Shown piece by piece: positions 28,544 through 46,694 of a DNA stretch of 64,000 bases. Origin of the DNA: an uncultured Acidimicrobiaceae bacterium. Lineage in GTDB: Bacteria > Actinomycetota > Acidimicrobiia > Acidimicrobiales > Bog-793. The notes under the pieces are model-generated. The model saw nothing but the letters and a program-made list of their open reading frames with translations. It searched no databases and was not told the origin of the DNA. A program made the translations under genes and the position numbers. The DNA lies in NCBI GenBank assembly GCA_963801185.1, contig CAWDDW010000001.1, positions 41,939 to 105,938 on the forward strand, in the 5' to 3' direction. The first letter of the stretch is position 1; each line of letters starts with the position of its first letter.

Positions 28544-30124
28544 TCAGAAGGCCCCATGCCCCCTGAACACCCGGGCGGGCGTGTGCCAGAGGATCTTCAA
28601 GTCCCAGAGAAGCGACCACGACGCCACGTAGAGGTAGTCGAGGCGCTTCAGCTCGTCGTAGGACAGATGGCTCCGGCCCGAGATCTGCCACAAGCCGGTC
28701 ATCCCCGGCCGTACGTCGAAACGGCGGGCGGCAGATCCGGCTATCTGACTGGACTCTGCCGGAATGAACGGTCTTGGCCCGACGAGCGACATGTCGCCGC
28801 GCAACACGTTCAACAGCTGTGGGAGCTCGTCAAGACTCGACTTCCGTAAGAAGGCCCCGACCCTGGTCACTCGCGGATCGCCCCGCATCTTGAACAACGG
28901 ACCGTCCACCTCGTTCGCCTTCACCAGATCGGAATCGCCGCGGTGCTGCTCCGCATCCACGACCATCGTCCGAAGCTTCAGCATCGTGAAGGTCCGGCCG
29001 TTCTGGCCGACTCGCTGCTGACGGAAGAACACGGGACCCGGTGACGAGCGCTTCACCGCGATAGCGGCAGCTGCGAAGACAGGGCTCAAGATGACGACCG
29101 AGAGGGTCGCGAGCACGAGGTCGAACGTGCGCTTTGCCACCCGTGCGCCACGGCTCAGGCTACCCGGTGCCACGTCGATGATGGCAAGGCCCGCTATCTC
29201 CTTGACCGCGGAGCGCCATGAGAGGAGCTCGAAGTAGCGCGGCACGATCGAGATGGCGATGTCGGGCTTCAAGGATTGCAGTCGTTGGATGGCCTCGGCA
29301 GGATGCGTCCGCGAGAAGCTGACGATGACCTGGTCGACCGCGTGGTTGGCGCAGATGGTAGGCAGGTCGTCGATCGGCCCGAGCACTCCGGTGCCTGGAG
29401 CCGGGTCATCGTCGACGCACCCGACGACCGTGATGCGGGGGTCCCACGACAGGTAGCGCAGGAGATGCCCTGCCATCATGCCGCTCCCGACTATGAGGAC
29501 GCGGAAGTGCTCAACATCGGCCGCGCGCATCAGCGCCCGGGCGAGTGCCCGTCCCATCGGGACGGCGAGCGCGGCGATCGTCAGCGCAACCACGATCGTG
29601 ACCGGCGCGACCGACGATCGGGCCTCGAGGCCACCGAAGAGGTGATTGATACCGAGGACGAAACAGCTCGCAAATGCCAGCGCGTAAATGATGTCGCGCA
29701 GCTCGCTGAAGGTGTTGACCATCAACTGGCGGGGCCAGCGCGCGTACAGGCCGTTGGCCCAGAATGCGACGGCAGCCGCAAGCTGCAATAGCCCGCCGAG
29801 GATGAGATCGGGTATGAGGGCTGATCCCGACCCTGCCGGCGTCTGGTGGACGATCCGGACGGCCAAGATCTCACAGGCGCCGACGACCGCGAGATCTGCG
29901 ACGAAAAGTGCCACCCGTGGCCCGATGCGGGCCGCCCGGCCTGCTACGACTCCATCGGGTTCGGGGTGGCTGGCGGGCGGCGCTATCGCGAGTGGAATGC
30001 GTTCGCGACGCGTGCGGGGATCTATTCGATCGGCGTCACGAAATGCCTCCCGCCGATGGGGTCCCTGCAGCTCAGCCTCTCGTCTTGTCACTTTCCCCAG
30101 CCCCTCTTGAGCCCCGCGGAGCAC
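28544..30124 (-). CDS. Exopolysaccharide polyprenyl-phosphate glycosylphosphotransferase (WbaP/EpsB-type initiating sugar transferase)
   Basis: N-terminal TM block, Rossmann-like 'FRVLIVGSGMMAGHLLRYL', and a C-terminal bacterial sugar-transferase domain: 'FDLVLATLSVVILSPVF...PGPVFFRQQRVGQNGRTFTMLKLRTM...DELPQLLNVLRGDMSLVGPRP'. The start is uncertain. Confidence 0.88.
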   Translation of the reverse strand: MLRGAQEGLGKVTRREAELQGPHRREAFRDADRIDPRTRRERIPLAIAPPASHPEPDGVVAGRAARIGPRVALFVADLAVVGACEILAVRIVHQTPAGSGSALIPDLILGGLLQLAAAVAFWANGLYARWPRQLMVNTFSELRDIIYALAFASCFVLGINHLFGGLEARSSVAPVTIVVALTIAALAVPMGRALARALMRAADVEHFRVLIVGSGMMAGHLLRYLSWDPRITVVGCVDDDPAPGTGVLGPIDDLPTICANHAVDQVIVSFSRTHPAEAIQRLQSLKPDIAISIVPRYFELLSWRSAVKEIAGLAIIDVAPGSLSRGARVAKRTFDLVLATLSVVILSPVFAAAAIAVKRSSPGPVFFRQQRVGQNGRTFTMLKLRTMVVDAEQHRGDSDLVKANEVDGPLFKMRGDPRVTRVGAFLRKSSLDELPQLLNVLRGDMSLVGPRPFIPAESSQIAGSAARRFDVRPGMTGLWQISGRSHLSYDELKRLDYLYVASWSLLWDLKILWHTPARVFRGHGAF

Positions 30125-30387: not shown

Positions 30388-31710
30388 GTGAAGGTTGCAG
30401 TGTTCGGTCTTGGCTACGTCGGCACCGTGACAGCGGCATGTCTTGCTGCTCGCGGCCACGACATCTGGGGGGTCGACATCGACGAGCACAAGGTTGCGAT
30501 GGTCGGCGATGGCCGCACTCCGGTGCTGGAGCCCGGTTTGGGGGAACTGATTGCCGACGCTGTCGCGAGCGGAGCGCTCCACGCGACGACGAGCGTTGCG
30601 GAGGCCCTCACCGGCGCCGAGGTCTCGATCGTCTGCGTTGGGACTCCCTCATCTGCCAATGGCGGCACCGACCTCAGCTTCGTCACGCGGGCGACAGAGG
30701 AGATCGCTCAAGTGTTGGCGGCAGCGCCAGAGGGCTCTCCGTTTCATGCGGTCGTCGTCCGGTCGACCGTCCCGCCCGGTACCGTCGACGAGATCGTGGC
30801 TCCAGTGCTCCGGGCCACCGGCGCTCGAGTCGGTACGGCGATGTGCCCCGAGTTCCTCCGCGAGGGCTCTGGAGTCGCAGACTTCTTTGACCCACCCTTC
30901 ACGGTCGTGGGAACCGGGGACCCGGACGTCGCGGAGCTCCTCTCGTCGCTGTTCGGGTTCCTCGACCAACCTGTGCGGGTCGTGGCCGTTCGGACAGCGG
31001 AGTCGCTCAAGTACGCCTGCAACGCCTTTCACGCCGTGAAGGTCGCCTTCGCGAACGAGATCGGTCGCGTCTTCCGTCCCCTTGGGATCGACTCTCGTGC
31101 GGTTATGGAGCTCTTCTGCGAGGACCGGCGCCTCAACATCTCGCCGAACTACCTTCGACCCGGCTTTGCGTTCGGCGGTCCATGCCTGCCGAAGGACCTG
31201 CGGTCACTTCTTCATTCGGCGCGGATGAGCAGCGTCGACCTTCCCTTGCTCGCCGGCGCGATGTCGTCGAACGAGCTCGTGCTCGCAGATGTCGTGAACC
31301 GCATCACCGCCGAGGGTGGTTATGGCGAGGGTGGCATGACAGTGGCTCTTCTCGGCCTGAGCTTCAAGATGTCGAGCGACGACCTGCGGGAGAGCCCGAG
31401 CGTGCGGTTGGCGGAGACGCTCATCGGCAAGGGCTACAGGGTGCGGATCCACGACCCGGTCGTGAAGCCGTCGCAGCTGATCGGGACGAACCGCCGCTAC
31501 GTCGAATCGAGGCTTCCTCACCTTCAGCACCTGCTGGCGGACAGCGCCTCGGAGGCTCTGGCGGGGGCGGAAGTCGCTGTGGTTTCCTCGTCGACCGAGC
31601 CCGTCATCGCAGCGCTGCTTGCCGCCGCCCCCTCGCGCATCTTGGATCTCACCGGTCGTCTCGGCGCCGGTGTCGAGGCCCTTCAAGGCTACGAAGGTGT
31701 CGGATGGTGA
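30388..31710 (+). CDS. Nucleotide-sugar 6-dehydrogenase, AlgD-like (probable GDP-mannose 6-dehydrogenase)
   Basis: 'MKVAVFGLGYVGTVTAACLAARGH', 'VCVGTPS', 'PEFLREG', 'YLRPGFAFGGPCLPKD', 'LGLSFKMSSDDLRESP', and C-terminal '..EGVGW'. It is colinear with Pseudomonas AlgD as I recall it. The substrate assignment is an inference. Confidence 0.75.
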   Translation: MKVAVFGLGYVGTVTAACLAARGHDIWGVDIDEHKVAMVGDGRTPVLEPGLGELIADAVASGALHATTSVAEALTGAEVSIVCVGTPSSANGGTDLSFVTRATEEIAQVLAAAPEGSPFHAVVVRSTVPPGTVDEIVAPVLRATGARVGTAMCPEFLREGSGVADFFDPPFTVVGTGDPDVAELLSSLFGFLDQPVRVVAVRTAESLKYACNAFHAVKVAFANEIGRVFRPLGIDSRAVMELFCEDRRLNISPNYLRPGFAFGGPCLPKDLRSLLHSARMSSVDLPLLAGAMSSNELVLADVVNRITAEGGYGEGGMTVALLGLSFKMSSDDLRESPSVRLAETLIGKGYRVRIHDPVVKPSQLIGTNRRYVESRLPHLQHLLADSASEALAGAEVAVVSSSTEPVIAALLAAAPSRILDLTGRLGAGVEALQGYEGVGW

Positions 31711-31729
31711 AGGTGCGTCATCTCTTCGG

Positions 31730-32979
31730 GTGGGGGACAGCGTGTCCAGCGGCAAGCACGTCCTGATCATCGTCCAGAACCTGCCGGTCCCCTTCGATCG
31801 GCGCGTCTGGCTCGAATGCCAAGCCCTTCGGGACGCTGGGTACGACGTTTCCGTCGTGTGCCCGAAGGGCCCTGGTGACCCAGGTCTCGAAGTGGTCGAT
31901 GGCGTGACCTTGTACAAGTACCGCCAGTACGCCGGGCGTGGGGGAGGGGTCGGTTACCTCCTCGAGTACGCCTATTCGTTCGGGGCAACCGCCGCCCTCG
32001 TGAGGCGAGCGTGGCGCCGGCAGCGCATCGACGTGCTCCAGGCGTGCAATCCGCCCGACATCTTCTGGCCTCTTGGGTTGCTCTTCCGGCTGCTCGGCCG
32101 TGGACGGTACGTGTTCGACCACCACGACTTGTGCCCCGAGCTGTACGAGTCGAGGTTCCCGACCGCCAATCGAGTGCCGTACTGGGGCCTTCGCGCCCTT
32201 GAGTGGTGCACGTTCCGCTCCGCCGACCGCGTCATCTCCACGAACTCGTCGTACCGCGAGATCGCCCTTCTACGCGGCGGGAAGCAGCCCCACGAAGTGA
32301 CCGTCGTGCGAACAGGACCGGATGCCGTGCGCCTCCAACGCACTGAGCCCGACCCCGAACTGCGCCGCGGCCGGCGCTTCCTCGTCGCCTACATCGGTGT
32401 GATGGGTCCTCAGGACGGAGTCGACGTCGTGGTCCGGACGGCGGCCAAGATCGTCCACGACTGGGCGAGGGATGACGTCAGCTTTGCCGTGATGGGCTCA
32501 GGAGACTGTTTCGACGAGCTCGTGGCTCTGAGAGACGACTCGGTCTCGGAGACTTCGTCGACTTCATGGGACGAGTCCCCGACGATGTCGTCAAGCGTGT
32601 CCTGTCGACCGCTGACGTCGGGTTGTCTCCTGACCGGAAGAATCCTCTGAACGACGTCTCGACGATGAACAAGACCATGGAGTACATGGCCTTCTCACTC
32701 CCAACTGTCGCATTCGACCTGCGGGAGACCAGAGTGTCGGCCGGAGAGGCCGCGGCGTACGCCGAGCCGAACGAAGTGGAGAGCTTCGCGAGCGTTCTGG
32801 TCGATCTGTTGGACGACGAGCCTCGACGGCGCTCGATGGGCAAGCTGGCACGGGCCAGGGTCGAAGAGGAGCTGGCCTGGACACATCAACGGGATGCGTT
32901 CGTCGGCGTATACGACGGACTGCTGGCCGACTCGCCGCGCGCTCGAGCGGTACCGGCGTCGTCAGCTCCGCGCGGCTGA
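31730..32979 (+). CDS. Glycosyltransferase family 4; frame break near 32539 as sequenced
   Basis: 'HVLIIVQNLPVPFDRRVWLECQALRDAGYDVSVVCP' is a typical N-terminus. '...CFDELVALRDD' (ORF 31619..32650) continues as 'LGLGDFVDFMGRVPDDVVKRVLSTADVGLSPD...' (ORF 32566..32979). The start is GTG 31730 or 31742. The length is 1250 nt = 3n+2. Confidence 0.75.
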
Positions 32980-32983
32980 TCCG

Positions 32984-34895
32984 ATGTGCGGGATCGCCGG
33001 CTGCTATCAGCAGCCCGACGGGATAGGGCTCGCCAAGGCGATGAGCGAGCGAATCGCTCACAGGGGCCCCGACGCGGAGGGCCTTCACTCCTACAGCGAC
33101 GAGCGGGTCACCGTGCAGCTTGCCCACCGGCGACTCTCCATCATCGACTTGACGAGTGCAGCGGATCAGCCGTTCTCCAAGGATGGACTGGTGCTCTCGT
33201 ACAACGGGGAGCTGTACAACTACCGAGAACTGAGGAACGAGCTCGCGGGCTCGGGGGTACGTTTCGTCACCGCGTCTGACACCGAAGTCGTGCTCGAGGC
33301 CTGGCGGCGATGGGGATGGCGAGCACTGACCCGCTTCCGGGGCATGTTCGCTTTCGCACTCCTCGACGAGAGGACAGGTCAGCTGTTCCTCGCTCGCGAC
33401 CAGCTCGGGATCAAGCCGCTCTATCTGTTGCGGCGAGATGACGGGGTGGTGTTCTCGTCGGAGTTGAGAGGGCTGGTCGCGGCGCTCGGAAGCGAGCTGC
33501 GGATCGATCCCTCCGCACTCGTGGCATCGATGCTCTACTACTGGGTGCCCGACCAGCGCTGTTCAATCCGCAACGTCGAGAAGCTGCCGCCGGGGACATG
33601 TGCCGAGGTCTCCCCCGATGGATCAGTCCAGACGCACTCGTACTGGGACATCCGGGAGGTCGCGTCCGAGGCCGCCGCCGGGCCGCCGTCGGACCTCCGG
33701 GCGGTGGTCGAGGAGTCGGTCACCGCCCATCTCGTTGCCGACGTACCGGTGTCGAGCTTCTTGAGCGGCGGGCTCGACTCGAGCATCATCACGGTCCTCG
33801 CCAAGCGGGCGAACCCGGAGGTCGACGCCTACACCATCGGATTCAGGCCCGAGGACAACCGCCTCGAGGCGATGCCGGACGACATGACCTACGCCCGCAA
33901 AGTCGCCGCCCGGTATGGCGTGACCATGCACGAGATCGAGATCGCCCCGGACATAGCCGACCTGCTCCCTCGCATCGTCGACATCCTCGACGAGCCGATC
34001 GGGGACCCGGCAGCGATCAACACTTACCTCATGTGCCAAGCCGCTCGCGACGCAGGAGTCAAGGTCGTCTTGTCGGGGATGGGTGCCGACGAGCTCTTCG
34101 GCGGCTATCGCAAGCATCTGGCCTGCGTCGTGGCTGCTCGTTACCAACGGCTGCCGGCGATCTTGCGGAAACGGGTCGTGGAGGGTGCCGTCGGCAGGCT
34201 TCCGGTCACTGCGTTTGGGCACGGGCTGCGTTACGTCCGCTGGTCCAAGCGGTTCCTCACGTTCGCAGAGCTCGGAGAAGAGGAGGCATTCCGCCGCAGT
34301 TACACCCTGTACGACCTGCCGGAAGCTCGCTGAGCTGATCAGCCCGGACCTGAGCGGCCACGTCGGCGAGATCGCAGATGAGCATCGCCAGATCTATAAG
34401 GACAACTCGCTCGGGGATCACGTGAACCGGATGTGCCTCGCGGATGCCCGGCTGTTCCTGCCAGGGCTCAACCTCGCTTACACCGATCGAGCAAGCATGG
34501 CCGCGTCCACTGAGGTCCGGGTGCCCTTCGTCGATCCCGACGTTGTACGAGCGGCGTTCTCATTCGGCGGGCCGCAGAAGGTCTCTGGGCGCAAAGGCAA
34601 GCTTCCGTTGAAGCGCGCAGCCGAGGCCTGGCTGCCCGAGGAGATCATCCACCGCCCGAAAGCGTCCTTCGGCGCGCCGTTGCGGGCGTGGATGGCTCAC
34701 GACCTAAGTTCGATGGTCGACGACGTGCTGTTGTCAGGCGAGCTCGTCTCGTCGGGCTTCCTCGATCGGCGACCGCTCGAGCGGCTAGTCGCCGACGATC
34801 GCTCGGGGCGGGAGGATCGCTCGAAGCAGCTCTGGCAACTGCTGACGATGGAGCTCTGGGTCCGCAACATGGGCGCCCAGGGCGTCACCACCTGA
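32984..34895 (+). CDS. Asparagine synthase (glutamine-hydrolysing)-family amidotransferase (AsnB/WbpS-like); frame break near 34325 as sequenced
   Basis: Ntn nucleophile start 'MCGIAG', then 'YNGELYNYRELR' and the PP-loop 'SFLSGGLDSS'. '...SYTLYDLPE' (stop 34333) continues in the +1 frame as 'LAELISPDL...MCLADARLFLPGLNLAYTDRASMAASTEVRVPFVD...'. The length is 1912 nt = 3n+1. Confidence 0.85.
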
Positions 34896-34977
34896 TGAGG
34901 CCGCTTCTCAGGCCGGAACGGCCGCCGACGATAGCGACGGTGGGGCGTGGACGGCAACACTCCCCGGAGGGAAGAGG

Positions 34978-37181
34978 ATGAAACAAGTCGCACAGAACTA
35001 CCGGACCGGTGAGCTGACGGTGCTCGACGTCCCGCCGCCGACGTGTCGTCCCGGTGGCATCCTCGTCCGATCGCTCTACTCGCTCATCTCGACCGGCACA
35101 GAGGTCATGAAGGTGAAAGAGGCAAGGCTCTCTCTCGCCGGCAAGGCACGGGCCCGTCCTGAACAGGTACGCCAAGTGGTTGACACCGTTGTGCAACAAG
35201 GGCCGAGGGCGACCTACAAGAAGGTGATGACGCGCCTCGACTCCTACACCCCCCTCGGCTACTCGCTCTGCGGGGTCGTCGCGGAAGTGGGCGAAGGTGC
35301 CGGCGAGTTCAGGGTGGGCCAGCTCGTGGCGTGCGCCGGGAACGAGCACGCGCTTCACTCGGAGGTCAACTGGGTACCTACCAATCTCTGCGTGCCGGTG
35401 CCTGATGGCGTGGACCCGAGGCAGGCTGCCTTCGCGACGGTGGGGGCCATCGCGATGCACGGCGTCCGGCGCTGCGAGGCCCAGCTCGGTGACACGGCGT
35501 GTGTCATAGGCCTCGGGTTAGTCGGGCAGCTGGCTGTGCAGCTGCTGGTCGCGTCAGGAGTCGTGGTGGTCGGCCTCGACCCGGTGGAGGACCGGTGCCT
35601 GTTGGCAGAGCGGGCGGGTGCGCTCGCGTCCGCGCCGCCGACCGCCGACGGGCTCGACCGGGTGGAGCGTGCCCTGTCGGAGGCAAGCGGCGGGCTCGGG
35701 GCCGATCACATCCTCCTCGTCGCCGGCGGGTCCTCGAACGAACCAGTCGAAGCTGCGGCAAGACTCGCCGCGACAGGGCCCGCGTCGTCGACATCGGCAA
35801 GATCCGCCTCGACCTTCCCTGGAACGCCTACTACGAGAAGGAGCTTGACGTCGTCTTCTCGCGCTCGTACGGCCCGGGGCGCTACGACGAGCGATACGAG
35901 CTCGACGGCATCGACTATCCAGCCGGCTACGTGCGGTGGACCGAACGAAGGAACCTCGGCTGCTTCGTCGACCTTCTCGCGAGGGATTCTCTCGACGTCG
36001 AGTCGCTCGTCTCCCACGTCTTCCCGGTCGAGCGTGCGGTCGAGGTGTACGACCGCTTGAGCTCGGGCGAGCTCGGTGGCGTAGGGCTGCTGTTCGAGTA
36101 CGGGCCCGGTGAGCCGCCCGTCTCGCCCGAGGGGCGAGGTGAGACGATGACCGCCGGGTCACCGCCACGGGCGAGTGAGCCGAAGATCTCGCCTCGACCG
36201 GGTGGGGGGGTCCCGGTGGCCGGTGACCGGGTCCGCCTCGGCTTCATCGGTGCTGGGAATTACGCCTCGTCGATGCTCCTCCCGGTGCTCGCGGCCGCCG
36301 AGAACGTCGAGCTCCGTCACGTCGCCACGACTCGCTCGCTGACGGCCATGAACGCCCAACGGCGCTTCGGATTTGCCACCGTGAGCACGGACTCGACCGA
36401 GGTGCTCGGAGACGACTCGCTCGACGCCGTCTTCATCGTGACCCGTCACCGCTCGCATGCAGGCCTCGTCTGCCGGGCCCTCGAGGCCGGCAAGGCCGTG
36501 TTCGTGGAGAAACCCCTGGCGCTGTCCCTCGAGGAGCTCGACCGGATCCTCGACGTCGTGAGAGAGACGGGCAACGACCGCCTCATGGTCGGCTTCAACC
36601 GGCGTTTTGCTCCGCTTCTCGTCGACATGCGGGCGAGGTTCGCGCGCCCCATGGCCGGTGCCGTCGCCCGTTACGCCGTCAACGCCGGCTCGCTCTCCCA
36701 TACGAGCTGGTATGCGGACGAGCAGGAGGGGACGCGGTTCGTCGGCGAGGGTGGCCACTTCATCGACACCCTGAGCTGGTGGCTGGGCGCCCGCCCGCGG
36801 GAGGTCTCGGCCCTGCAGGGTCGCGACGCGAACGACCTCATGATCAACCTTTCCTTCGACAACGGGGCGATCGCCAGCCTCGCCTATGTCACGAACGGGA
36901 GTCGCCGGTTCCCGAAGGAGGTCTTCGACACAAGCGCGGGAGGACGGTCGGCCCGACTCGACAACTTCCGCCGTGCGACCGTGTGGGGCGGCGCCCCACG
37001 CCGCACGCGGTGGAGCTTCGGAGCGGTGGACAAGGGTCAGCGTCACATGCTCGAGGCGTTCGTGGGCGCGGTGCGCACGGGTGAGCCGATGCCGATAGAT
37101 CTCTCCTCGCTGGTGGACACCACCCGTGCGACGCTCGCCGTGCGCGACAGCCAAGTCTCTGGGCGGTCCGAGGAGCTGTGA
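34978..37181 (+). CDS. Bi-domain oxidoreductase (Zn-ADH/MDR-like N-terminus fused to Gfo/Idh/MocA C-terminus); frame break near 35769 as sequenced
   Basis: MDR part: 'LYSLISTGTE...', 'CVIGLGLVGQLAVQLL'. '...NEPVEAAARLA' continues in the -1 frame as 'RDRARVVDIGKIRLDLPWNAYYEKEL...'. Gfo/Idh/MocA part: 'RLGFIGAGNYA' and 'AGKAVFVEKPLA'. The length is 2204 nt = 3n+2. Confidence 0.75.
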
Positions 37182-39184
37182 CCGAGGGACGCCTGTGGTG
37201 GTACGCCCACCGTCTCGGGCGCATGTCGCCGGAGGAGGTGGTCTGGAGAGCCCACGACCAGGTCCTGCGCAGGACCTGGTCGAGACGCCAGGTCCTCCCC
37301 TCCTCGCAGCCCCGGAGATCGGTGCGCGTGAAAGGCGCCCCGAAATTCGCCACGCCACTTCCTTCCGGCTGTCGCGACCGTATCCCCGCCGAGGTTCGAG
37401 AAGGACTCGTAGCGGCGGCCGACGAGCTGCTCAAAGGGAGGTGGGAGGTGCTCGGGGTGGTGAGGACGGACCTCGCCGACCCCGACTGGTTCTTTGACCC
37501 GGTCACCGGGCGGAGAGCGGCGTCCGAGAAATACGCCTTCAACATCAACCACCGGTCCGAGGCTGAGGTCGGCAACGTCAAGCAACTGTGGGAGCTGTCA
37601 AGGCTCCAGCACCTGACGGTGCTGGCTGGGGCCTTTTTCGCCAGCGGGGAGGAGGCCTACGCGGAGGCGGTCGCCGCTCAGCTGTCGTCATGGTGGGCCG
37701 AGAATCCTTTCCTCTCGGGCATCCACTGGACGAGCGGCATCGAGCTCGGCGAGCGGCTCATCTCCTGGGTGTGGATCCGGCGCCTTCTCGACGAGTGGCA
37801 AGGAGCGGCCGCGCTGTTCGAAGCGAATGTCGATGCACGAGAGCAGGTGTACTGGCACCAGCAGTACCTCGCCGCCTTCAGGAGCCGGGGCTCGTCCGCC
37901 AACAACCACGTGATCGCGGAGGCCGCCGGGCAGCTCGTCGCGAGCTGCGCCTTCGATTGGTTCGAGGAGAGTGAGAAGTGGCGTGTGAGCGCTGCATCCT
38001 TGCTCGAGGGCGAGCTGTGCCTTAACACCTTCCCGAGCGGGCTCAACCGTGAGCAGGCCTCGGAGTATCACGGATTCGTCATCGAGCTGGCGCTCCTTGC
38101 CGCGGTCGAGTGCGACGCGTGTGGTCATCCGCTCGGCCCTGCTACCTGGAGCTTGCTCGCGACGATGCTGGACTGCGCAGCTGCCGTCGTCGACCAACAG
38201 GGCAGGCCGCCGCGCCAAGGAGACGGCGACGGAGGGCGGGCGTTGCTGGTCGATCCACCGACGGTCGACCGTGAGGCCTCGCTTCTCGCCACAGGGGCAG
38301 CGCTGGTGCAACCGGCGTCGTGGTGGCCAGCGACACGCCCGACCGCCATGAGCGTCGTCGTCGGAGGGCTCAGCGGTCGTGCCAGAGAGATCGAACAGAG
38401 GACGCCGGAACGCCCATCGCACTTCGGAGACGCCGGTCTGACGCTCCTTCGTTCCACGCCACGGCCTGACCAACCGGAGATCTGGTGCCGCTGCGACGGA
38501 GGTCCGCATGGCTACCTGTCGATCGCGGCGCACGCGCACGCCGATGCACTCTCGGTAGAGGTTCGCTACGGGGGAGTGGACATACTCGCTGATCCGGGGA
38601 CCTACTGCTACCACGGTGAGGCGCCTTGGCGCCGCTACTTCCGCTCGACGCTCGCACACAACACCATCGAGCTCGCTGGCGAAGATCAGTCAGTGTCGGG
38701 CGGTCCCTTCCTCTGGCTCTCCTCAGCGCACACGACCGGTGTCGAGGTCCTACCCGACGGCGACGGCCGACCGGTGCGATGGGCCGGGCAGCACGACGGG
38801 TACGAGCGTCTCACGCCTCCCGCTCGACACCATCGCAGTGTGGAGCTCGACGATCTCGGGCGCCGCCTCGACATTGTCGACCGGATCGACAGTGCCGGCA
38901 CGCATGTCATCCGGATGGCGTTCCACCTCGGGCCGGCCGTGCAGGTGGTGCTCGAGGGAGCCGTCGCCGACCTCACCTGGAGCGTCGGCACTGTGAGCGC
39001 ATCGGCGAGATTCGAGCTTCCCGCGGAGCTCGACTGGACTGCTCATCGCGGTGAGTCAGAACCGGTCCTCGGATGGTACTCCGATCGCTTCGGGAGAAAG
39101 GAACCGTCTATCTCCTTGCTCGGGGAGGGTTGCGCGATTCCAGGTTCCAGCGAATTGACCAGCTCTATCACGTTCTCGCCGTAA
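37178..39184 (+). CDS. Heparinase II/III-family (alginate-lyase-like) protein with no signal peptide
   Basis: 668 aa. It has an alpha/alpha-toroid-like N-terminal half ('WELSRLQHL', 'WTSGIELGERLISW', 'NNHVIAEAAG') and a C-terminal 'HAHADALSVEVRYGGVDILADPGTYCYH'-type motif. The start overlaps the upstream stop by 4 nt. The family call is from memory of the motif pattern. Confidence 0.6.
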   Translation: MTEGRLWWYAHRLGRMSPEEVVWRAHDQVLRRTWSRRQVLPSSQPRRSVRVKGAPKFATPLPSGCRDRIPAEVREGLVAAADELLKGRWEVLGVVRTDLADPDWFFDPVTGRRAASEKYAFNINHRSEAEVGNVKQLWELSRLQHLTVLAGAFFASGEEAYAEAVAAQLSSWWAENPFLSGIHWTSGIELGERLISWVWIRRLLDEWQGAAALFEANVDAREQVYWHQQYLAAFRSRGSSANNHVIAEAAGQLVASCAFDWFEESEKWRVSAASLLEGELCLNTFPSGLNREQASEYHGFVIELALLAAVECDACGHPLGPATWSLLATMLDCAAAVVDQQGRPPRQGDGDGGRALLVDPPTVDREASLLATGAALVQPASWWPATRPTAMSVVVGGLSGRAREIEQRTPERPSHFGDAGLTLLRSTPRPDQPEIWCRCDGGPHGYLSIAAHAHADALSVEVRYGGVDILADPGTYCYHGEAPWRRYFRSTLAHNTIELAGEDQSVSGGPFLWLSSAHTTGVEVLPDGDGRPVRWAGQHDGYERLTPPARHHRSVELDDLGRRLDIVDRIDSAGTHVIRMAFHLGPAVQVVLEGAVADLTWSVGTVSASARFELPAELDWTAHRGESEPVLGWYSDRFGRKEPSISLLGEGCAIPGSSELTSSITFSP

Positions 39185-39428: not shown

Positions 39429-40322
39429 ATGATGGAAGAGGCCGAGATTCAATCATTCTGGGAATCGCACCCTTGCGGTGACGAGCTCCTCGGCGGCCTC
39501 GACCGCGCGTTCGAGGGGAACTACATAGCGTTCTTCGACGCGTACGACAAGGCGAGGTACGAGCTCGAATCCCACATTCCCAACTGCCTCGACGCGCTCA
39601 ACGTCAACGACAGGAAGGTGCTTGAAATCGGCCTTGGCCAAGGTGCCGAGTCCGAGCAGCTCATCCGCAGAGGTGCCCACTGGACCGGACTCGACCTGAC
39701 CAGGGAAGCTGTAGCCAGGGTGAAGACGCGCCTGCAGATTCGGGGGTTGAGCTACGACGACATCTGGCAGGGTTCGGTTCTTCGAATCCCGGCTGCTGAC
39801 GACGCCTTCGACATCGTCTTCTCTCATGGCGTGCTTCATCACGTGCCGGACATCGGGGCAGCTCAGAGCGAGATTCAGCGCGTGCTCAAGCCGGACGGAC
39901 GGCTCGTCGTGATGCTCTACGCACGGCGGTCGCTGAACTACCAGGTCGCCATCAAAGTCATACGCCGCGCGGTACTCCTTGCAGCGTGGCCTCTGCGCAA
40001 GCACATCACCTCCGGCATTCTTGCTACTCATCTGCGCAACGCAGAAAGTGAGGGTCTCGCCCACTACTTGCGCCTCGATCGGTTTATTCACGCCAGCACC
40101 GATGGGCCGGCCAGTCCGTTCGCAAGGGTGTATGACCTGTCGGAAGTGCAACGTGACTTCAAGTCGTTTGAAATCTCCCGCTGGCATAAGCACTTCATGC
40201 ACGCGCCGCCACTCCCGGTCCACGGACTCCCCGGCGGCCGGCTGATGGGATGGCACCTCTGGGTCGAGATGTCCCCGCGTTCCGAGGAGGCTCGGTCGAA
40301 TGGGTCGAATCGCTCGCGCTGA
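39429..40322 (+). CDS. Class I SAM-dependent methyltransferase
   Basis: Motif I 'VLEIGLGQGAES', then 'FDIVFSHGVLHHVPD' and 'LKPDGRLVVM'. I chose ATG 39429 ('MMEEAEIQSFWESHPCG') rather than the track start at 39297. Confidence 0.8.
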   Translation: MMEEAEIQSFWESHPCGDELLGGLDRAFEGNYIAFFDAYDKARYELESHIPNCLDALNVNDRKVLEIGLGQGAESEQLIRRGAHWTGLDLTREAVARVKTRLQIRGLSYDDIWQGSVLRIPAADDAFDIVFSHGVLHHVPDIGAAQSEIQRVLKPDGRLVVMLYARRSLNYQVAIKVIRRAVLLAAWPLRKHITSGILATHLRNAESEGLAHYLRLDRFIHASTDGPASPFARVYDLSEVQRDFKSFEISRWHKHFMHAPPLPVHGLPGGRLMGWHLWVEMSPRSEEARSNGSNRSR

Positions 40323-40547: not shown

Positions 40548-41813
40548 ATGACACCGGCTACGCCGGGTCGCTCAAGGCCGCGACTCGCGGTGGCGTCGGG
40601 GCCGACCGGGGTGTCCCCTATGACGGTCGCGGCGGCAGCTTCGGAACATTACGACCTGCTGTGGCTCGTGGATGAGAGCGGTCCCGACCTCAGCCTCCAC
40701 GTGGCGCTATTAGGGCGACTTGGCCGAGTCGTCGAGCTCGGTGGTCTGTCCGGCTCGGAGGCGGCTGCCGTCCTAGCGGACTATCGGCCGGACGGCATCG
40801 CGACCTTCCATGACTTCGGCATGGTAAAGCTGGCCGAGATCGCTGAGCAGCTCAATCTCCCGTTTCACAAGCCAGCGGTGGCGGAACGCCTGGTCGACAA
40901 GTACGCCCAGCGTGAGGCGCTCATGGCGGGCGGCCTCGCGGTGCCGCGCTACGCCCCCGTGCCGCTTGTCCTCGACGACGATGCCCTGGCTGCACTCGAG
41001 GCTCGTGTCGGCTTTCCGGCCGTGCTCAAGCCCAGGAGCGGGACAGGCAGCCGGTACGTAGTCTCGGTGCCGACCTCCGGCGCGCTGGTGGAAGCGCTGG
41101 TGCAGAGGCGCCGAGATGGCCGGAACGACCCCCTCCTCCTGGAGGAGTTCATCGGGGAGGCGACGTCGCGCGACGCCCAGATCGGAGACATCGTCTCGGT
41201 GGAGAGCTACGTGAGCGCCGGCCGCGTGAGCAACATCGCTGTCACTGGACGCTTCGCGTTCGCCGAGCCGTTCCGCGAGACCGGTAACTTCATTCCAGCG
41301 GACCTGCCGGAGGCCGAGCGGACGGAGGTGCTGCAGCTCGCGACGGAGGCAGCACGCGCGCTCGGGGTCGAGACCGGGTGCCTACACACCGAGATCAAAC
41401 GGACCAAGGAGGGACCGCGCCTCGTCGAGATCAACGGGAGACCTGGCGGCGGGATACCGCAGATGCTCGCCCGCGTTTCCGATCTAAACCTCTTCCACGT
41501 CGCCTTCCAGCTCGCGCTCGGTGAGTCGCTGCCCGACCGGGACGTGGTCCCGACCGGCCGCGTCGTCTACCGGGCCATCGTCCAGCCGCCCACCTCTGCA
41601 CACCGCGTCGTGAGTGTCCAAGGCCTGGAGACAGTCGCGGAGCTCCCCGGCGTCGAGGAGGTCATCTTGAATCGCGGCCCTGGTCGGGTTGTGGACTGGC
41701 GGAACGGCTACCTCGAGTTCGTCTTCCTCGTCGACGGGACCGTCGCCGACATCGACGAGCTCCGCGTGATCGACCGGCGGCTGCGTGACGCGGTCGTGAT
41801 CGTCTACGAGTAG
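40548..41813 (+). CDS. ATP-grasp domain protein (carboxylate-amine ligase type)
   Basis: 'DKYAQREALMAGGLAVPRY', 'GFPAVLKPRSGTGSRYV', 'LLLEEFIGE', 'CLHTEIKRTKEGPRLVEINGRPGGG'. The start is ATG 40548 or 40620. Confidence 0.75.
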   Translation: MTPATPGRSRPRLAVASGPTGVSPMTVAAAASEHYDLLWLVDESGPDLSLHVALLGRLGRVVELGGLSGSEAAAVLADYRPDGIATFHDFGMVKLAEIAEQLNLPFHKPAVAERLVDKYAQREALMAGGLAVPRYAPVPLVLDDDALAALEARVGFPAVLKPRSGTGSRYVVSVPTSGALVEALVQRRRDGRNDPLLLEEFIGEATSRDAQIGDIVSVESYVSAGRVSNIAVTGRFAFAEPFRETGNFIPADLPEAERTEVLQLATEAARALGVETGCLHTEIKRTKEGPRLVEINGRPGGGIPQMLARVSDLNLFHVAFQLALGESLPDRDVVPTGRVVYRAIVQPPTSAHRVVSVQGLETVAELPGVEEVILNRGPGRVVDWRNGYLEFVFLVDGTVADIDELRVIDRRLRDAVVIVYE

Positions 41814-41827
41814 CGTCTCTCGGCGAT

Positions 41828-43662
41828 ATGGAGTTCGAGGAGCCACAGGGGCGGGCGGTGGCAGTCTGGTTTGGCCCCGAGGAGTCCCCCCTGTTCGGCC
41901 TTGTGAATTCGGGTGGCCGGGACATCCGCGGCGCCGTCATCCTTTGTCCGCCGCTAGGTCGGGAAGAGAAGGATTGCTACTCAACTTTCGCTCAGCTGGC
42001 TGCTGCCCTTGCCCGGGTTGGATTTCTGGCGCTCCGCTTCGACTACCGCTCGACGGCGGACTCATTCGACCGCTCCAGCACCGACGACAGCGGATGCGGT
42101 CTCCTCGACGACGTCCGGAGTGCCATCGACTTCGTCCGCGACCTCGGAGCGCCCAGCGTCGCGCTGGTCGGGATGAGGATGGGCGCGCTTCTCGCGGGGC
42201 TCGTGAGCGCGACTGAGCCCGTGGAAGCCGTCGTGATGTGGGACCCGTGCTCAAGCGGGCACGCGTTCGTTCGCGAGCAGCGAATGCTCAGCCTGCGCAT
42301 CCCGGTCGACCACTCCGATACCGATCACATCCCGGACTTTCATCTCCCCGTGGCGATGTTGCGGGAGCTGTCGACGATGAAGATGGATGAGACGACTGCA
42401 TCGCTGGCGGGCCGAGTTCTCCTACTCACTCGAGACGACGGGCTGGAAGATCACCGGTTAGTCGGGCATCTCACGTCACCCCGCACAGAACACCGGAAGG
42501 TGGCCGGGCAGCCTGAACTGCTCGACCTTCCGACTCCCTTTCAGGTCGTTCCAGCGGAAACGGTGGCGCTGATTGCCTCATGGATTGACGCCGCGATGCC
42601 AGTCGTCACTCGTGCCGTCACGCTGCCGACGGCGGACGAGGTCACCGTACCCCTGCCACCCGCGAAGGACGATCGGCCCCGGTCGGAAGCGGGTCGCCCG
42701 ACGGCCGTGGTGGAACGCGCACTGCGATTGGGAAGCCTCGGGCTCTTCGCGATCTCGACAGAGCCAAACCGAGGTCATAAGGGACCGACCTGCATTTTCG
42801 TCAGCGTGGCGAACGAGCATCGCATCGGCCCTGGACGGCTCTGGGTGGAGCTCAGCCGCCGTCTTGCGGCGTATGGCTTCCACTCCGTCAGGCTCGACCT
42901 GAGTGGTTACGGCGACAGTCCAGCCCGTGGCGCTCCTCCGAGCGTCTACTCCATCTCCGCGGTGGACGACGTAGTCGAGGCCGCTCGTTCGCTTCGACCC
43001 GACGATCCCTCCGACGTGCTGTTGTTCGGCCTTTGCTTCGAGCGGGTACCACGTGCTGGAGGCGGCCACCCGCTTGCACCCTCGAGCCGTTTGCGCATTG
43101 AACCCAACCGTCTCGTTCTCGGCGCCGGAGACGCGATCCGGCTTGCCACCCGACCCCCGGCGCCGGTTCTTCCTTCCGCAAACGACGTTCAGCGCGAAGA
43201 AAGACAGCCCCTTGTCGTTTCGCCGAGTCGAGCAGCGCTATCCGGCGATCAAGTGGCTCGGGGCTCGCTTCCCCGTCTTCATGCTGAGGTTTCGTGGGAT
43301 CGGGCGGCGGGCGATCATACGGATGAGCCGACCCTACGAGACGTTGGTCTGGCTATCGGCAACCCGACCCGGGCACTCTCGCAGCGGACCCGCTCAGCAG
43401 GTCTCGGCGCTCGTTCGATCCGGCACGAACGTGTTGCTGATCTGTGGGCCGGACGAGATGCAGCCTTTCCGGCGCGCCACTGCGCGGTCCGAGTGGCCGG
43501 GAACACTTGAGCTTCGAGGTGATCCCTGCACTCGACCACGCGCTGCGTCGGCCCCGGGACCGAGACGAGGTGACCCGACTCATTCTCGAGCGTGCGCGCG
43601 AGTCTTTTCGAGCTGAGCGACGGGACCCTGCGGCTCGACGGACCACCCAGTCTCACGCTTGA
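41828..43662 (+). CDS. Tandem alpha/beta-hydrolase-fold protein; two frame breaks (~43037 and ~43500) as sequenced
   Basis: The N-terminal half reads '..AVILCPPLGREEKD...VALVGMRMGALLAG..'. The second half reads '..TCIFVSVANEHRIGPGRLWVELSRRLAAYGFHSVRLDLSGYGDS..VLLFGLC', then 'SSGYHVLEAATRLHPRAVCALNP..' (ORF 43053..43616), then 'EHLSFEVIPALDHALRRPRDRDEVTRLILE..' (ORF 43444..43662). The length is 1835 nt = 3n+2. Confidence 0.65.
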
Positions 43663-43858: not shown

Positions 43859-46615
43859 ATGGAACGACGAAAGATTATTCGTCGTGGCACGCGGCTGACG
43901 CTGCTCGCGGCGGTCGCCGTCGTCACGCCTCTTGTCGCGTTCGGGCAGGCCTCTAACGCCTCTCTCACCTATGAGAGCCCTAGGCTCGCCGGACCAGCTC
44001 TGACGTTCGTCTCGACCAGCACCTCGACTCCTTCAACGGCGGTGCCGAAAGGGACTTCGAAGGGCGACGTGGTCGTCGTTGTCGTGGAAACCCTGGGCAC
44101 GAGCTCGGTCACCTGCCCAAACCCCTGGAAGCGAGTGCTGGACTCGACTAACGGCTCGAGGACGCGTCTCGCCGTCTGTCTCGAAGCCGATGCGGGGACC
44201 ATCACGCCTCCAGCGCTGGCTGTCAGCCCGGCGAGCCAGGTCTCGATGATCACCATGACGTTTTCCGGCGTGGCCGCCGAGCGGTCTGTCGTGAAAGATG
44301 CCGCGGCGAAAGGCGCCGTCTCCCCGAGCCTGTCTCTTCCCACCGGGCACGTCGCCCTCCTGTTCAGCGAGGGCATCAATCTGGCTTGGGCCCCGCCGAC
44401 CAAAGGCGCCTCCGACCTCAAGAGCAGGTTGAAGCCGCTCGAGACCGTGACCAATCCGGGGCTCTCGGAGATCAACGTGGCGAAAAGCCTCGACGCGAAC
44501 CCCGGTGCCACGCCGACCTTTACTTGGAGCGGGAGCCGCCCAGCACAAGCCCTCCTCTCAAGTACCTTGGCGCTCAGGGACGCCACGGATCCACCTCCCG
44601 TCACGACCACTACCACCTCCACGACGACTACGGTCCCACCGACCACAACATCCACCAGCACCACGTCGACCAGCACGACGACTTCCACCAGCACCACGTC
44701 CAGCACCTCGACGACGACTACCACAACGACGGCGCCCGGCGGCGGCGGTGCGCCAACCACACCCCCGGCCGAGATCTGCGGCAACTCGAGCGTGCTCGAC
44801 GGTCCATCGAAGGCCCCTGCCGGGGCAATCACCGTCCCTGCTGGCAACAACACGACTGCCGCATCGGATGGTGACTACGACAAAGCCGGGGCAACTTACT
44901 ACTTCGCTAAAGGCACGCACACCATCGAGACGCAGATCATCCCCGGCAAGAACTCGACATACATCGGGGCGCCAGGAGCGATCATCGATGGCGGGGGGTC
45001 CCAGAACGGGCAGTTCACCCAGACAGCGACAGGCGTCACAATCGAGTACCTCACGATCCAGAACTACTGGACGTCTGAAGCCCAGGACGTAGTCAACCCG
45101 GACGGCAGCACTGGGTGGAAGATCGAATACGACACCATCGGACCGAACGAGGCTGGCGAGCACGGCACCGGTCAGGACGATGATGGCGGCTACGGCCTCG
45201 GGATCGGCAGCAACGACACCGTCGAGTACAACTGCATCACGGGCAACTCAGAGGGTGGCTTCAACGCCGACGGCGGCAGGGGCAAACTTCTCACGGGTGT
45301 CACTATCTCCAACAACGAGATCAGCCAGAACGGGCTGGGAACCTACCCCGACGGCGGGAACAACCCGTACCACTGTGGCTGTTCGGGCGGGGGAAAGATC
45401 TTCTGGTCGCTCAACGTCACGTTCACAGACAACTACGTCCACAACAACTACAACGCTGGGATCTGGGCCGATTTCAACAACGCCGGGGCGAACATCTCCT
45501 ACAACTACATCTCCTCGAACTGGGGTGAAGGCATCTTCTACGAGGCGAGCTACAACGCCAACATCTCCGATAACACCCTTGTCGGGAATGGCTGGGCGTC
45601 TGACGGGGCGTGGCCGAGTGGGGGGGCATACCAGTGCTACAACGATGTGAGCTGCACCAACGGTCTCGGGCCGGTCACCGGTTCGGGCGGCGGCTTCCCC
45701 TATGGCGCAATCTATCTTCCGAGCTCGGGTGGGAACGGCAACATCCCATCCAACTACTCCGGTCATCTCTATGTCGAGAACAACGTGCTCACGAACAACT
45801 TCGGAGGCATCGTCGCCTACACCGATCCGACTCGGTTCTCGGGCGGACCATTCCAGTGCAACGCGCCCCTGCAGGACGCCAACTCGACCTATTACCAGAA
45901 CTGGGATCAGGAGCAGGCGAGCGACGCTGTCGTGAACGGGACCACCGCGGTCACCTCGGCCACCGGCTTTGAGACGTTCTTCCAGAACGGCACGAGCGGG
46001 CAGACCAGCACCTGCTCGAACCCCGGACCAGTCACGACCCCAACCGTCGGCATGTACGTCTACGGGACCGACATCCCTGCCGGCGACACGGTCGCTCGTG
46101 TCACGAGCGCCAACTCCATCACGCTAACTACCGCTGCGACCGGCAGCGGTACCGTCTCCATGACGCTGTCGACGCCGGGAGGGTGCGGCCTGTACGACCT
46201 GTACGGATCGTCGCCCGGCGCTATAACCGGATCACCCCCTGAGGACTATTTTGACAACTGCATCTGGGCTTCGACGAACCTGATCGTCTCAGGAAACCAG
46301 CTCAGTATGGCGTCAGGCTCGGTGACCGGCTGCACCTCGGCTGCGCTCTGCGGGGTCATAGCAGCTATCTCCTACGACGCCGGGATCGACGCATGGTGGC
46401 GTATCTACCAGCCGTACGAGGTGGACAACATTGCCGAGTCTGGCAGTTTGCTCGACAACGTATGGTCCGACAACACCTACACTTGGACCGGCACGGGAGG
46501 GTCGTCCGCCTGGCAGTTCGAAGCCGGCTCACAAGGTCGCTCTGGAAACGTTACCTTCTCCCAATGGCAATCATCGCCAAACAGTCAGGACGCCGGGAGC
46601 ACCTTCACGTCATAG
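43859..46615 (+). CDS. Secreted right-handed parallel beta-helix protein with a poly-Thr/Ser linker (polysaccharide lyase, hydrolase or epimerase-like)
   Basis: GGAGG lies 6 nt upstream of ATG 43859. Signal peptide 'MERRKIIRRGTRLTLLAAVAVVTPLVAFGQASNA'. The linker is 'PPPVTTTTTSTTTTVPPTTTSTSTTSTSTTTSTSTTSSTSTTTTTTTAPGGGG'. Repeated beta-helix rungs follow: 'VTISNNEISQNG', 'NNYNAGIWADFNNAGANISYNYISSNWGEGIFYEASYNANISDNTLVGNGW', 'LYVENNVLTNNFGGIVAY'. Confidence 0.7.
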   Translation: MERRKIIRRGTRLTLLAAVAVVTPLVAFGQASNASLTYESPRLAGPALTFVSTSTSTPSTAVPKGTSKGDVVVVVVETLGTSSVTCPNPWKRVLDSTNGSRTRLAVCLEADAGTITPPALAVSPASQVSMITMTFSGVAAERSVVKDAAAKGAVSPSLSLPTGHVALLFSEGINLAWAPPTKGASDLKSRLKPLETVTNPGLSEINVAKSLDANPGATPTFTWSGSRPAQALLSSTLALRDATDPPPVTTTTTSTTTTVPPTTTSTSTTSTSTTTSTSTTSSTSTTTTTTTAPGGGGAPTTPPAEICGNSSVLDGPSKAPAGAITVPAGNNTTAASDGDYDKAGATYYFAKGTHTIETQIIPGKNSTYIGAPGAIIDGGGSQNGQFTQTATGVTIEYLTIQNYWTSEAQDVVNPDGSTGWKIEYDTIGPNEAGEHGTGQDDDGGYGLGIGSNDTVEYNCITGNSEGGFNADGGRGKLLTGVTISNNEISQNGLGTYPDGGNNPYHCGCSGGGKIFWSLNVTFTDNYVHNNYNAGIWADFNNAGANISYNYISSNWGEGIFYEASYNANISDNTLVGNGWASDGAWPSGGAYQCYNDVSCTNGLGPVTGSGGGFPYGAIYLPSSGGNGNIPSNYSGHLYVENNVLTNNFGGIVAYTDPTRFSGGPFQCNAPLQDANSTYYQNWDQEQASDAVVNGTTAVTSATGFETFFQNGTSGQTSTCSNPGPVTTPTVGMYVYGTDIPAGDTVARVTSANSITLTTAATGSGTVSMTLSTPGGCGLYDLYGSSPGAITGSPPEDYFDNCIWASTNLIVSGNQLSMASGSVTGCTSAALCGVIAAISYDAGIDAWWRIYQPYEVDNIAESGSLLDNVWSDNTYTWTGTGGSSAWQFEAGSQGRSGNVTFSQWQSSPNSQDAGSTFTS

Positions 46616-46671: not shown

Positions 46672-46694
46672 GGCGCTACGCGAATGAGTGGGGA
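46672..46694. repeat. IS terminal inverted repeat at the transposase 3' side
   Basis: 'ggcgctacgcgaatgagtgggga'. The transposase stop codon (46676-46678) lies inside it. Confidence 0.8.

Follow-up and report, generated by a model that had tools for sequence, protein, structure and literature searches.

A lyase-fold protein proposed as a cytoplasmic uronate C5-epimerase in a recurrent glycan operon of an Acidimicrobiales-like actinobacterium

A stretch of 64,000 nucleotides (contig CAWDDW010000001.1 of assembly GCA_963801185.1, positions 41,939 to 105,938; hereafter the window) has a G+C content of ∼65% and carries a surface-glycan locus that spans from 28.5 kb to the window end. The window genes resemble those of Acidimicrobiales metagenome-assembled genomes (MAGs). 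Judged by its genes, the host is an Acidimicrobiales-like actinobacterium and the glycan route is of the Wzx/Wzy type, because Wzy_C, Wzz-like and Wzx genes are found at 48179..53382. Within this locus, an AsnB-type glutamine amidotransferase (AsnB), a bi-domain oxidoreductase (BiDom) and a heparinase II/III-like protein (Hep) form the distal part of a five-gene operon, preceded by an AlgD-like dehydrogenase and a family 4 glycosyltransferase (GT4). We propose, at a probability of about 45%, that mannuronic acid (ManA) would be epimerised at C5 by Hep and at C3 by BiDom and amidated by AsnB, with GT4 adding ManA to a lipid-linked repeat unit. The five genes are the following:

30388..31710, plus strand: nucleotide-sugar 6-dehydrogenase, AlgD-like, with three UDPG_MGDP_dh domains
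31670..32979, plus strand: GT4 glycosyltransferase, with the Glyco_transf_4 and Glycos_transf_1 halves in two frames
32984..34895, plus strand: AsnB-type glutamine amidotransferase (GATase_6/7 + Asn_synthase)
34978..37181, plus strand: BiDom, a medium-chain dehydrogenase/reductase (MDR) fused to a Gfo/Idh/MocA domain (Pfam, PDB sequence matches and Foldseek)
37178..39184, plus strand: Hep, 668 aa, intact (Hepar_II_III_N + Hepar_II_III_C)

The AsnB gene starts 4 nt past the GT4 stop codon, and the open reading frames (ORFs) of BiDom and Hep have 4 nt (GTGA) in common. An earlier description of the last three genes from the DNA letters (the initial annotation) had called them consecutive and coupled; its coordinates, its domain calls and the N-terminus it quoted for Hep, which starts MTEGRLWWYAHRLGRMSPEE, were all correct.

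Scanned with a Hep alignment, the species-genome collection gave at least 600 matching stretches, of which at least 590 encode a Hep relative. The best 80 loci were mostly from Actinomycetota and included cultured Kribbella, Trebonia, Pedococcus and Nocardioides. Cultured carriers of the module include Kribbella spp., Trebonia kvetii, Nocardioides koreensis and Streptomyces sp. KN37. Co-occurrence was counted in 66 related loci with at least 8 kb of upstream sequence, and in this set all partners lay on the same strand, in the same order and collinear with Hep. GT4 was the most constant partner (64/66 loci), followed by BiDom (63/66), AsnB (57/66) and the dehydrogenase, which was found upstream in 46/66. 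The commonest pattern, dehydrogenase-GT4-AsnB-BiDom-Hep, accounted for 43 loci and the pattern GT4-AsnB-BiDom-Hep for 13; only AsnB was missing in six loci and only BiDom in one. Unbiased clustering of all ORFs agreed with these partner counts. The recurrence is far beyond chance, which settles the co-occurrence question that the initial annotation had raised. Its statement that a trio recurs was right in that the genes do recur together; the trio itself is not the natural unit, because GT4 is the most constant partner and the core shared across phyla consists of the dehydrogenase, GT4 and Hep. Wzz-like, Wzy_C and an unannotated ∼430-aa gene lay downstream of Hep in ∼40 of the related loci. 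The conserved ∼430-aa protein (L001, 14412-15773; homologues in ∼39 loci) is encoded just downstream of Hep and is without a Pfam match.

Outside the actinobacterial clade 11 contexts were examined, and in seven of them Hep was directly beside a dehydrogenase-GT4 pair. The three genes were adjacent in Shinella, Rhizobium, Deinococcus, Sulfuricaulis and a Bacillota MAG, at 39-49% identity for the dehydrogenase, 42-46% for GT4 and 32-36% for Hep, and a Cocleimonas MAG and one further locus (L094) had the same Pfam arrangement of dehydrogenase, GT4 and Hep. The gene order Hep-dehydrogenase-GT4 occurred in several phyla, a ManC gene adjoins one module, and 'cellulase family' genes are present in the Shinella and Rhizobium loci. 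BiDom was found in none of the 11 contexts; AsnB or CapK-like adenylating enzymes were frequent neighbours of Hep there. Rhizobium rhizoryzae, Shinella and Deinococcus aetherius are Hep-only carriers. Because the core recurs across phyla and BiDom is absent there, the dehydrogenase, GT4 and Hep are the old core of the module, and AsnB and BiDom are add-ons. The Hep family is not bound to one pathway layout, because the neighbourhoods in two Azotimanducaceae-like loci (L092 and L093) differ: no recognisable sugar 6-dehydrogenase lay within 8 kb of their Hep-like gene, and the neighbours there encode WecB, acyltransferases, a polysaccharide deacetylase fusion and a sulfotransferase.

Two fusions of Hep-like sequences were found, each in a single cluster, so that a gene-calling artefact is possible for both. 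The first (P0307, 1311 aa; L086 9001-12936, an NCBI MAG) joins AsnB to a Hep-like part, and the second (P0254, 1208 aa, from an ENA contig) joins a Wzx-type flippase domain to a Hep-like part. A simple hydropathy count gave 6 clear segments for the latter, too few to place the Hep domain on one side of the membrane. In anammox-type Planctomycetes (Jettenia and a relative; L087 7029-11076 and L086 6984-12936) a distant second paralogue precedes the Hep-like gene; in L087 this paralogue matches Pfam DSE-like_N and Hepar_II_III_C. Both Planctomycetes loci have CapK_C adenylating enzymes and GT4s nearby and are without an adjacent dehydrogenase-GT4 pair.

Clustered at 50%, the Hep family comprised 13,230 representatives at E <= 1e-3 and 2,312 at E <= 1e-30. 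Conservation was high, with 59-62% identity over hundreds of proteins across actinobacterial families. The AlphaFold2 model of Hep (mean predicted local distance difference test, pLDDT, 80.6; predicted template modelling score, pTM, 0.87) consists of two domains, an (alpha/alpha)-toroid and a beta-sandwich. The top Foldseek matches were structures of PL12 heparinase III (4mmh, 5jmd and 4fnv; E 2e-19 to 6e-17), followed by lyases of PL35, PL33, PL15, PL17 and PL21 and then by human dermatan-sulfate epimerase 1 (DSE; 6hzn), which came at rank 35, behind many lyases, with an E of 3.8e-10 and a template modelling (TM) score of 0.52. Hep N243/H244, Y297 and H452 align to Asn240, Tyr294 and His424 of P. 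heparinus heparinase III (HepIII), which we take to be its catalytic residues, and a single offset of 24 fits all three pairs. N243-H244, Y297 and H452 were invariant in both alignments (A1 and A2), even at 37% mean identity. The residues at the catalytic positions do not separate lyase from epimerase. Hep is 14-17% identical to PL12 heparinase III (HepC), with which it shares the two-domain fold and the Asn, Tyr and His positions; it differs in having no signal peptide and a biosynthetic rather than catabolic context, and no sulfated glycosaminoglycan substrate is expected for it. Against the NCBIfam model NF045573 for HepC it scored 42.7 bits (cut-off 700), over residues 137-308 only. To DSE it is 11% identical. 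The human enzyme is likewise a structural match whose lyase-type fold serves C5 proton abstraction and re-addition, and the Pfam name DSE-like_N appears in bacterial paralogues adjoining Hep genes; unlike Hep, it is eukaryotic, resides in the Golgi lumen and acts on long chains. None of 334 full-length Hep homologues had an N-terminal hydrophobic segment, in line with the absence of a signal peptide remarked on in the initial annotation. Hep would thus be a cytoplasmic protein and not an exported catabolic enzyme, and from its fold and gene context we infer a lyase-fold uronate C5-epimerase.

The upstream dehydrogenase had been called AlgD-like, and the comparisons agree. Its best PDB match was AlgD (1mfz; E 7e-110, 44% identity over 417 columns, full length), and it scored 371 bits against P. 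aeruginosa GDP-mannose 6-dehydrogenase versus 232 bits for the best UDP-glucose dehydrogenase; the match to 3vtf had an E of 1e-67 and the WecC-type 4r16 scored 134 bits. By eye, the catalytic Cys motif GFAFGGxCLPKD is present in the alignment, where GFAFGGPCLPKD aligns with GFAFGGSCLPKD. This likeness to AlgD suggests that the product is GDP-D-mannuronic acid. AsnB, with an N-terminal Cys (MCGIAG start) and an SGGLDSS PP-loop (both by eye), is by sequence an AsnB-type glutamine-dependent amidotransferase; its N-terminal fragment alone scored 365 bits to TIGR01536 (cut-off 267). By description it resembles the WbpS/WbtH-type enzymes of O-antigen loci, which have the same Gln-dependent AsnB architecture beside a sugar 6-dehydrogenase and a GT4. 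The WbpS/WbtH-type homologues serve uronamide formation, and AsnB of the window would likewise amidate the C6 carboxylate of a uronate. The best NCBIfam likeness of AsnB was to TIGR03108, the XrtA/PEP-CTERM amidotransferase (346 + 107 bits on two fragments, cut-off 817). A PEP-CTERM/exosortase link, which the NCBIfam names would suggest, was rejected: the scores are far under the cut-offs, and there was no exosortase gene among the window genes scanned.

BiDom consists of two Rossmann dehydrogenase halves, an MDR domain at the N-terminus and a Gfo/Idh/MocA domain at the C-terminus. In a Pfam scan of just the broken N-terminal fragment, the ADH_N and ADH_zinc_N matches were both under the cut-off; the MDR fold was borne out by PDB sequence matches and by Foldseek searches with the halves. 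The best structural matches of the MDR half were alcohol/polyol dehydrogenases, and weak matches were found to the quinone-oxidoreductase type (TIGR02824, 3iup and 9kuj). The Gfo half keeps the EKP and GGHFID (GGHxxD) motifs, as judged by eye. Its neighbours in sequence and structure included WbpB, KijD10, levoglucosan dehydrogenase, DgpA, GenD2/KanD2 and the NAD-dependent sulfoquinovosidase 8qc6, a set rich in sugar C3 dehydrogenases or 3-ketoreductases. This points to an inversion of C3 by BiDom through a 3-keto intermediate.

The same pair of architectures is found in loci for polymers that contain the rare sugar N-acetyl-L-galactosaminuronic acid (L-GalNAcA). A plasmid search with BiDom matched 131 Ralstonia megaplasmids, with the matching gene in the eps operon. 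The order of this operon is tyrosine kinase, WecB, WecC, transporters, glycosyltransferase, acyltransferase, BiDom, 'heparinase', GT4-like gene, sugar transferase, acetyltransferase and aminotransferase. In R. solanacearum (exopolysaccharide EPS I; CP047137.1) GRB31_19125, a 'Gfo/Idh/MocA family oxidoreductase', is 38% identical to BiDom over its full length, and GRB31_19120, annotated as 'heparinase', is 24% identical to Hep and keeps the NNH, Y, H..ADAL and HNT motifs (identities were computed against the window genes or their nearest intact orthologues). The two genes overlap by 4 nt, as in the window; a GT4-like gene (29% identity to that of the window) follows Hep, and a manno-uronate-forming dehydrogenase and a Bac_transf-type primer are also present, the former upstream. 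The polysaccharide of R. solanacearum GMI1000 contains alpha-L-GalNAcA (PMC11200240, citing Orgambide 1991). The eps operon differs from the window locus in its dehydrogenase, which is a WecC acting on UDP-ManNAc and is accompanied by WecB; the AlgD-like enzyme of the window is 30% identical to the Ralstonia WecC, and the window locus has no WecB. Furthermore, the eps operon is without AsnB, its Hep is only distantly related, and its polymer is built of GalNAc, L-GalNAcA and a bacillosamine (Bac) derivative, whereas the glycan of the window is known from its genes alone.

A second such locus is that for emulsan in Acinetobacter, whose WeeE/WeeF route to UDP-L-GalNAcA was reportedly postulated by Nakar & Gutnick (2001). 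The genes gnlA and gnlB of A. baumannii K loci, described in papers of 2022 and 2026, correspond to weeE and weeF of the A. venetianus RAG-1 emulsan locus, are adjacent and are postulated to make UDP-L-GalNAcA (PMC9676051). The supplement of a 2026 Acinetobacter preprint lists GnlA as ADH_N, Rossmann and GH188-like (Gfo-like) parts, with a best PDB match that covers ∼40%, and GnlB as a PL12-like Hepar_II_III_C protein with 4fnv as best match. These are the same two architectures as in BiDom and Hep, and they are likewise adjacent; the Acinetobacter pathway differs in starting from the UDP derivative of N-acetyl-D-mannosaminuronic acid (UDP-ManNAcA), has no AsnB partner and has a function that is only postulated. 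A scan of the clusters of low-GC representatives for an Acinetobacter Hep homologue gave only Brocadia and KSB1 names. The L-galacto configuration differs from D-manno at C3 and C5, the relation known from GDP-mannose 3,5-epimerase, and L-gulo differs from D-manno at C5 alone. Two independent L-GalNAcA loci therefore supply D-ManNAcA together with exactly one lyase-fold protein, a candidate for the C5 step, and one double dehydrogenase, a candidate for the C3 step. The window module may accordingly be seen, by analogy, as a ManA-based, AsnB-bearing variant whose BiDom and Hep pair has already been tied tentatively to L-GalNAcA. The claim of the initial annotation that the trio has no assigned reaction holds in part: the UDP-L-GalNAcA reaction has been assigned to the WeeE/WeeF (GnlA/GnlB) counterparts of BiDom and Hep, and this assignment is a postulate.

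In the scheme that we favour, the dehydrogenase would make GDP-D-mannuronic acid and GT4 would add ManA to the lipid-linked repeat unit. Hep would then take the C5 proton beside the carboxylate, as lyases and dermatan-sulfate epimerase do, and return it on the opposite face to give the L-gulo configuration; it would re-protonate rather than eliminate because there is no good leaving group at O4. The Gfo/Idh/MocA domain of BiDom would oxidise the C3 hydroxyl and the MDR domain would reduce the ketone from the other face, which would give L-galacto. The net 3,5-epimerisation is the conversion needed for D-ManNAcA to L-GalNAcA in Ralstonia and Acinetobacter. Finally, AsnB would adenylate the C6 carboxylate and turn it into an amide. 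Both the sequence of these steps and the substrate level (nucleotide sugar or lipid-linked glycan) are provisional in this scheme. The initial annotation had already suggested epimerisation or oxidation and reduction followed by amidation, and all gene and homology evidence fits this suggestion, whose chemistry is read from sequence.

Several points weigh against the scheme. The catalytic residues of Hep are equally those of a true lyase, and the substrate of the dehydrogenase is read from 44% identity by itself. We know of no activity for any protein of the Hep-like or BiDom families, and to our knowledge neither L-galacturonic acid nor its amide has been described in actinobacterial glycans. 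The MDR domain seems, by eye, to lack the classical catalytic-zinc ligands (STGTE versus Cys...GHE), and zinc-free MDRs are often ene-reductases, i.e., enzymes that would fit different chemistry. BiDom is absent from all 11 contexts in other phyla; Hep can therefore function in its absence, and their pairing is clade-limited. The Acinetobacter match is taken from a published domain table, and the 2026 preprint considers the heparinase fold of GnlB a hint of 'a different functional role'.

The alternative that fares best, although we regard it as unlikely, places the same C5, C3 and amidation chemistry on the soluble nucleotide sugar; GT4 would then use a GDP-L-hexuronic acid, or the corresponding amide, already formed from GDP-D-ManA. 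Sugar-tailoring genes in such loci mostly act on nucleotide sugars, all enzymes of the operon would be cytoplasmic, and both the Hep-dehydrogenase-GT4 gene order seen in several phyla and the published WeeE/WeeF postulate (PMC9676051) agree with a soluble substrate. However, in all solved lyase-fold relatives of Hep a long cleft holds the oligo- or polysaccharide chain, and the Wzx-Hep fusion and the constant partnership with GT4 point to membrane-bound, lipid-linked substrates. AsnB-type enzymes that amidate lipid-linked cell-wall precursors are also known.

Less probable again is that Hep is a genuine lyase which, like AlgL, cuts the polymer of its own locus to control chain length, clear mislocalised polymer or recycle stalled lipid-linked intermediates, as in alginate synthesis. 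Hep does have a complete PL12-like fold and keeps the catalytic Asn, Tyr and His, the pathway is GDP-ManA-based like that of alginate, and many polysaccharide operons encode a cognate glycanase; 'cellulase family' genes are present in Shinella and Rhizobium. Yet a polymer of the Wzy pathway sits outside the membrane, and none of the 334 homologues has a signal peptide or anchor to reach it. The identity of 59-62% across actinobacterial families is also very high for a polymer-specific depolymerase, Hep is translationally coupled to an oxidoreductase and occurs fused to AsnB, and a secreted beta-helix protein in the same locus (see below) is a better glycanase candidate. If Hep were a true lyase after all, it would be an ordinary accessory gene of a polysaccharide locus.

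An elimination route seems improbable. Here Hep would catalyse a 4,5-elimination, the MDR domain would reduce the double bond and the Gfo domain would adjust a neighbouring hydroxyl, to yield a 4-deoxy or reduced hexuronic acid or amide. Such a route would make use of the lyase-type active site and of an MDR half that has no obvious catalytic-zinc motif and weakly matches quinone oxidoreductases, and the enoate would accept hydride more readily once AsnB had amidated or adenylated it. It is at odds with the Ralstonia and Acinetobacter polymers, which are made by loci with BiDom and Hep and contain L-GalNAcA, not 4-deoxy sugars; moreover, hydroxide at C4 is a poor leaving group, and by structure the MDR half is closest to alcohol/polyol dehydrogenases.

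Some of the genes are broken in the window sequence: GT4 by a 1-nt deletion at 32539, AsnB by a 1-nt insertion at 34323, BiDom by a 1-nt deletion at 35769 and a double alpha/beta-hydrolase further downstream by two inserted bases, at 43037 and 43513. The initial annotation, right about the domains of its three genes, had missed the breaks in AsnB and BiDom. A public JGI record (L090) encodes an identical Hep protein and is 99.96% identical to window positions 27179-46765. In this record uvrA (964 aa), GT4 (436 aa), AsnB (636 aa), BiDom (734 aa) and Hep (668 aa) are all intact. The two sequences differ in eight places, six single-base indels and two substitutions (32539, 34323, 35630, 35769, 39400, 43037, 43513 and 43593); each of them is within or next to a GAGCTC/CTCGAG or GCGCGC palindrome. 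The JGI short-read contig ends at ∼46765, at an insertion sequence (IS) element past which the window continues, and the truncated BiDom ORF recurs in an ENA contig of 186 kb. The coding sequences that flank each break on either side share 80-91% identity with orthologues. The window looks like a long-read assembly with motif-specific, perhaps methylation-linked, base-calling errors. Because the JGI record of the same contig has the genes intact, we read the breaks as sequence errors rather than decay and take the genes to be functional. Decay of the locus, with AsnB, BiDom and GT4 as pseudogenes and the trio without current function here, would account for single-base frameshifts in all three but is hardly credible, as all three are intact in the JGI record, the differences all lie in the palindromic motifs, uvrA-type housekeeping genes are broken too and the flanks of each break are conserved; on comparison with the public record the pseudogene reading was rejected. 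The window uvrA (24792-28140) is split into overlapping frames at 24792-26381 and 25966-28140, which form one 964-aa gene in the public record, and long overlapping minus-strand ORFs at ∼8.1-14.1 kb look like further frame breaks. The palindrome-linked errors hint at SacI/XhoI-like and GCGC-type methylation in the organism. Gene calling based on G+C content at third codon positions (GC3) proved too weak for defining genes.

The remaining genes of the glycan locus are the following:

28544..30124, minus strand: polyprenyl-phosphate sugar transferase (Bac_transf + CoA_binding_3; Pfam Bac_transf E 9e-66)
39429..40322, plus strand: S-adenosylmethionine-dependent methyltransferase (Methyltransf_11/25), 297 aa in the public record
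40590..41813, plus strand: ATP-grasp ligase (ATP-grasp_4), 407 aa in the public record
41828..43662, plus strand: double alpha/beta-hydrolase, with weak likeness to exosortase-associated hydr2/hydr1
43859..46615, plus strand: large secreted right-handed beta-helix protein of ∼920 aa (Beta_helix/NosD)
46676..47983, minus strand: ISL3-family transposase inside the glycan locus (DDE_Tnp_ISL3 E 1e-51)
48179-49405, minus strand: Wzy_C polymerase/ligase-like protein, part of the 48179..53382 block
49402-51258, minus strand: Wzz-like protein, part of the same block
51853-53382, plus strand: Wzx flippase, part of the same block

Further glycosyltransferases are present from 48179 onward. The Bac_transf protein, probably the priming enzyme of the glycan pathway, shares 43% identity with the small sugar transferase encoded in the Ralstonia eps operon. 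The methyltransferase, whose ORF is longer in the window owing to an inserted T at 39400, had tblastn matches in 7 other loci, and the double alpha/beta-hydrolase had matches in a few. No match to the ATP-grasp gene was found in the other loci compared, so that it was seen in the window locus only; it may be a second carboxylate-amide former that joins an amine or amino acid to a carboxylate. The methyltransferase and the ATP-grasp ligase are accessories of the window locus. The beta-helix protein has an N-terminal hydrophobic stretch (by eye), and an ORF cluster homologous to it was found near the module in 22/82 loci. The right-handed beta-helix fold is common to the AlgG/AlgE mannuronan epimerases and many glycanases, and by analogy the protein is possibly a polymer-level glycanase, lyase or epimerase of the ManA-based glycan. 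The ISL3 transposase gene separates the beta-helix gene from the Wzy, Wzz and Wzx genes.

Other known C5-epimerases differ from Hep in fold. The AlgG/AlgE enzymes are beta-helix proteins, and the archaeal Agl32 is a single alpha-helical domain with a fold unlike that of Hep (PMC13308652); Agl32 was rejected as a counterpart for this different, single-domain fold. According to a 2026 review, the bacterial uronosyl C5-epimerases identified so far all have other folds. Full-text literature that mentions heparinase alongside asparagine synthase, O-antigen, exopolysaccharide or GDP-mannose dehydrogenase contained no account of the module as far as it could be searched, 'II/III' being unsearchable as a term. 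Papers on the Pseudomonas Pap cluster and on Bacteroidetes O-glycosylation were irrelevant to it, and nothing usable was found in the literature on Kribbella cell-wall sugars.

Many bacterial capsules, O-antigens and exopolysaccharides, among them virulence polymers of Ralstonia, Acinetobacter and Pseudomonas, contain L-configured uronic acids such as L-GalNAcA, N-acetyl-L-gulosaminuronic acid (L-GulNAcA) and L-iduronic acid (L-IdoA). Hep is a concrete candidate for the formation of such acids: it is conserved, cytoplasmic and of lyase fold, travels with a uronate-forming dehydrogenase and GT4, and is present in L-GalNAcA loci. That the Hep family is the missing bacterial cytoplasmic uronate C5-epimerase, which would give L-gulo-uronic acids alone and L-galacto-uronic acids with BiDom, is a tentative proposal that we hold slightly less firmly than the scheme for the window locus. 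If true, the proposal would account for how Ralstonia and Acinetobacter, and perhaps also P. aeruginosa O10/O19 and Vibrio, come by the L-GalNAcA and similar L-uronic acids of their capsules, O-antigens and exopolysaccharides; an undescribed L-hexuronamide would also be predicted in actinobacterial surface glycans. Confirmation would allow serotype-prediction schemes to read sugar configuration from sequence and would provide a second bacterial case of a lyase scaffold turned epimerase. It would also move the very large 'alginate lyase family protein' annotation class from degradation to biosynthesis.

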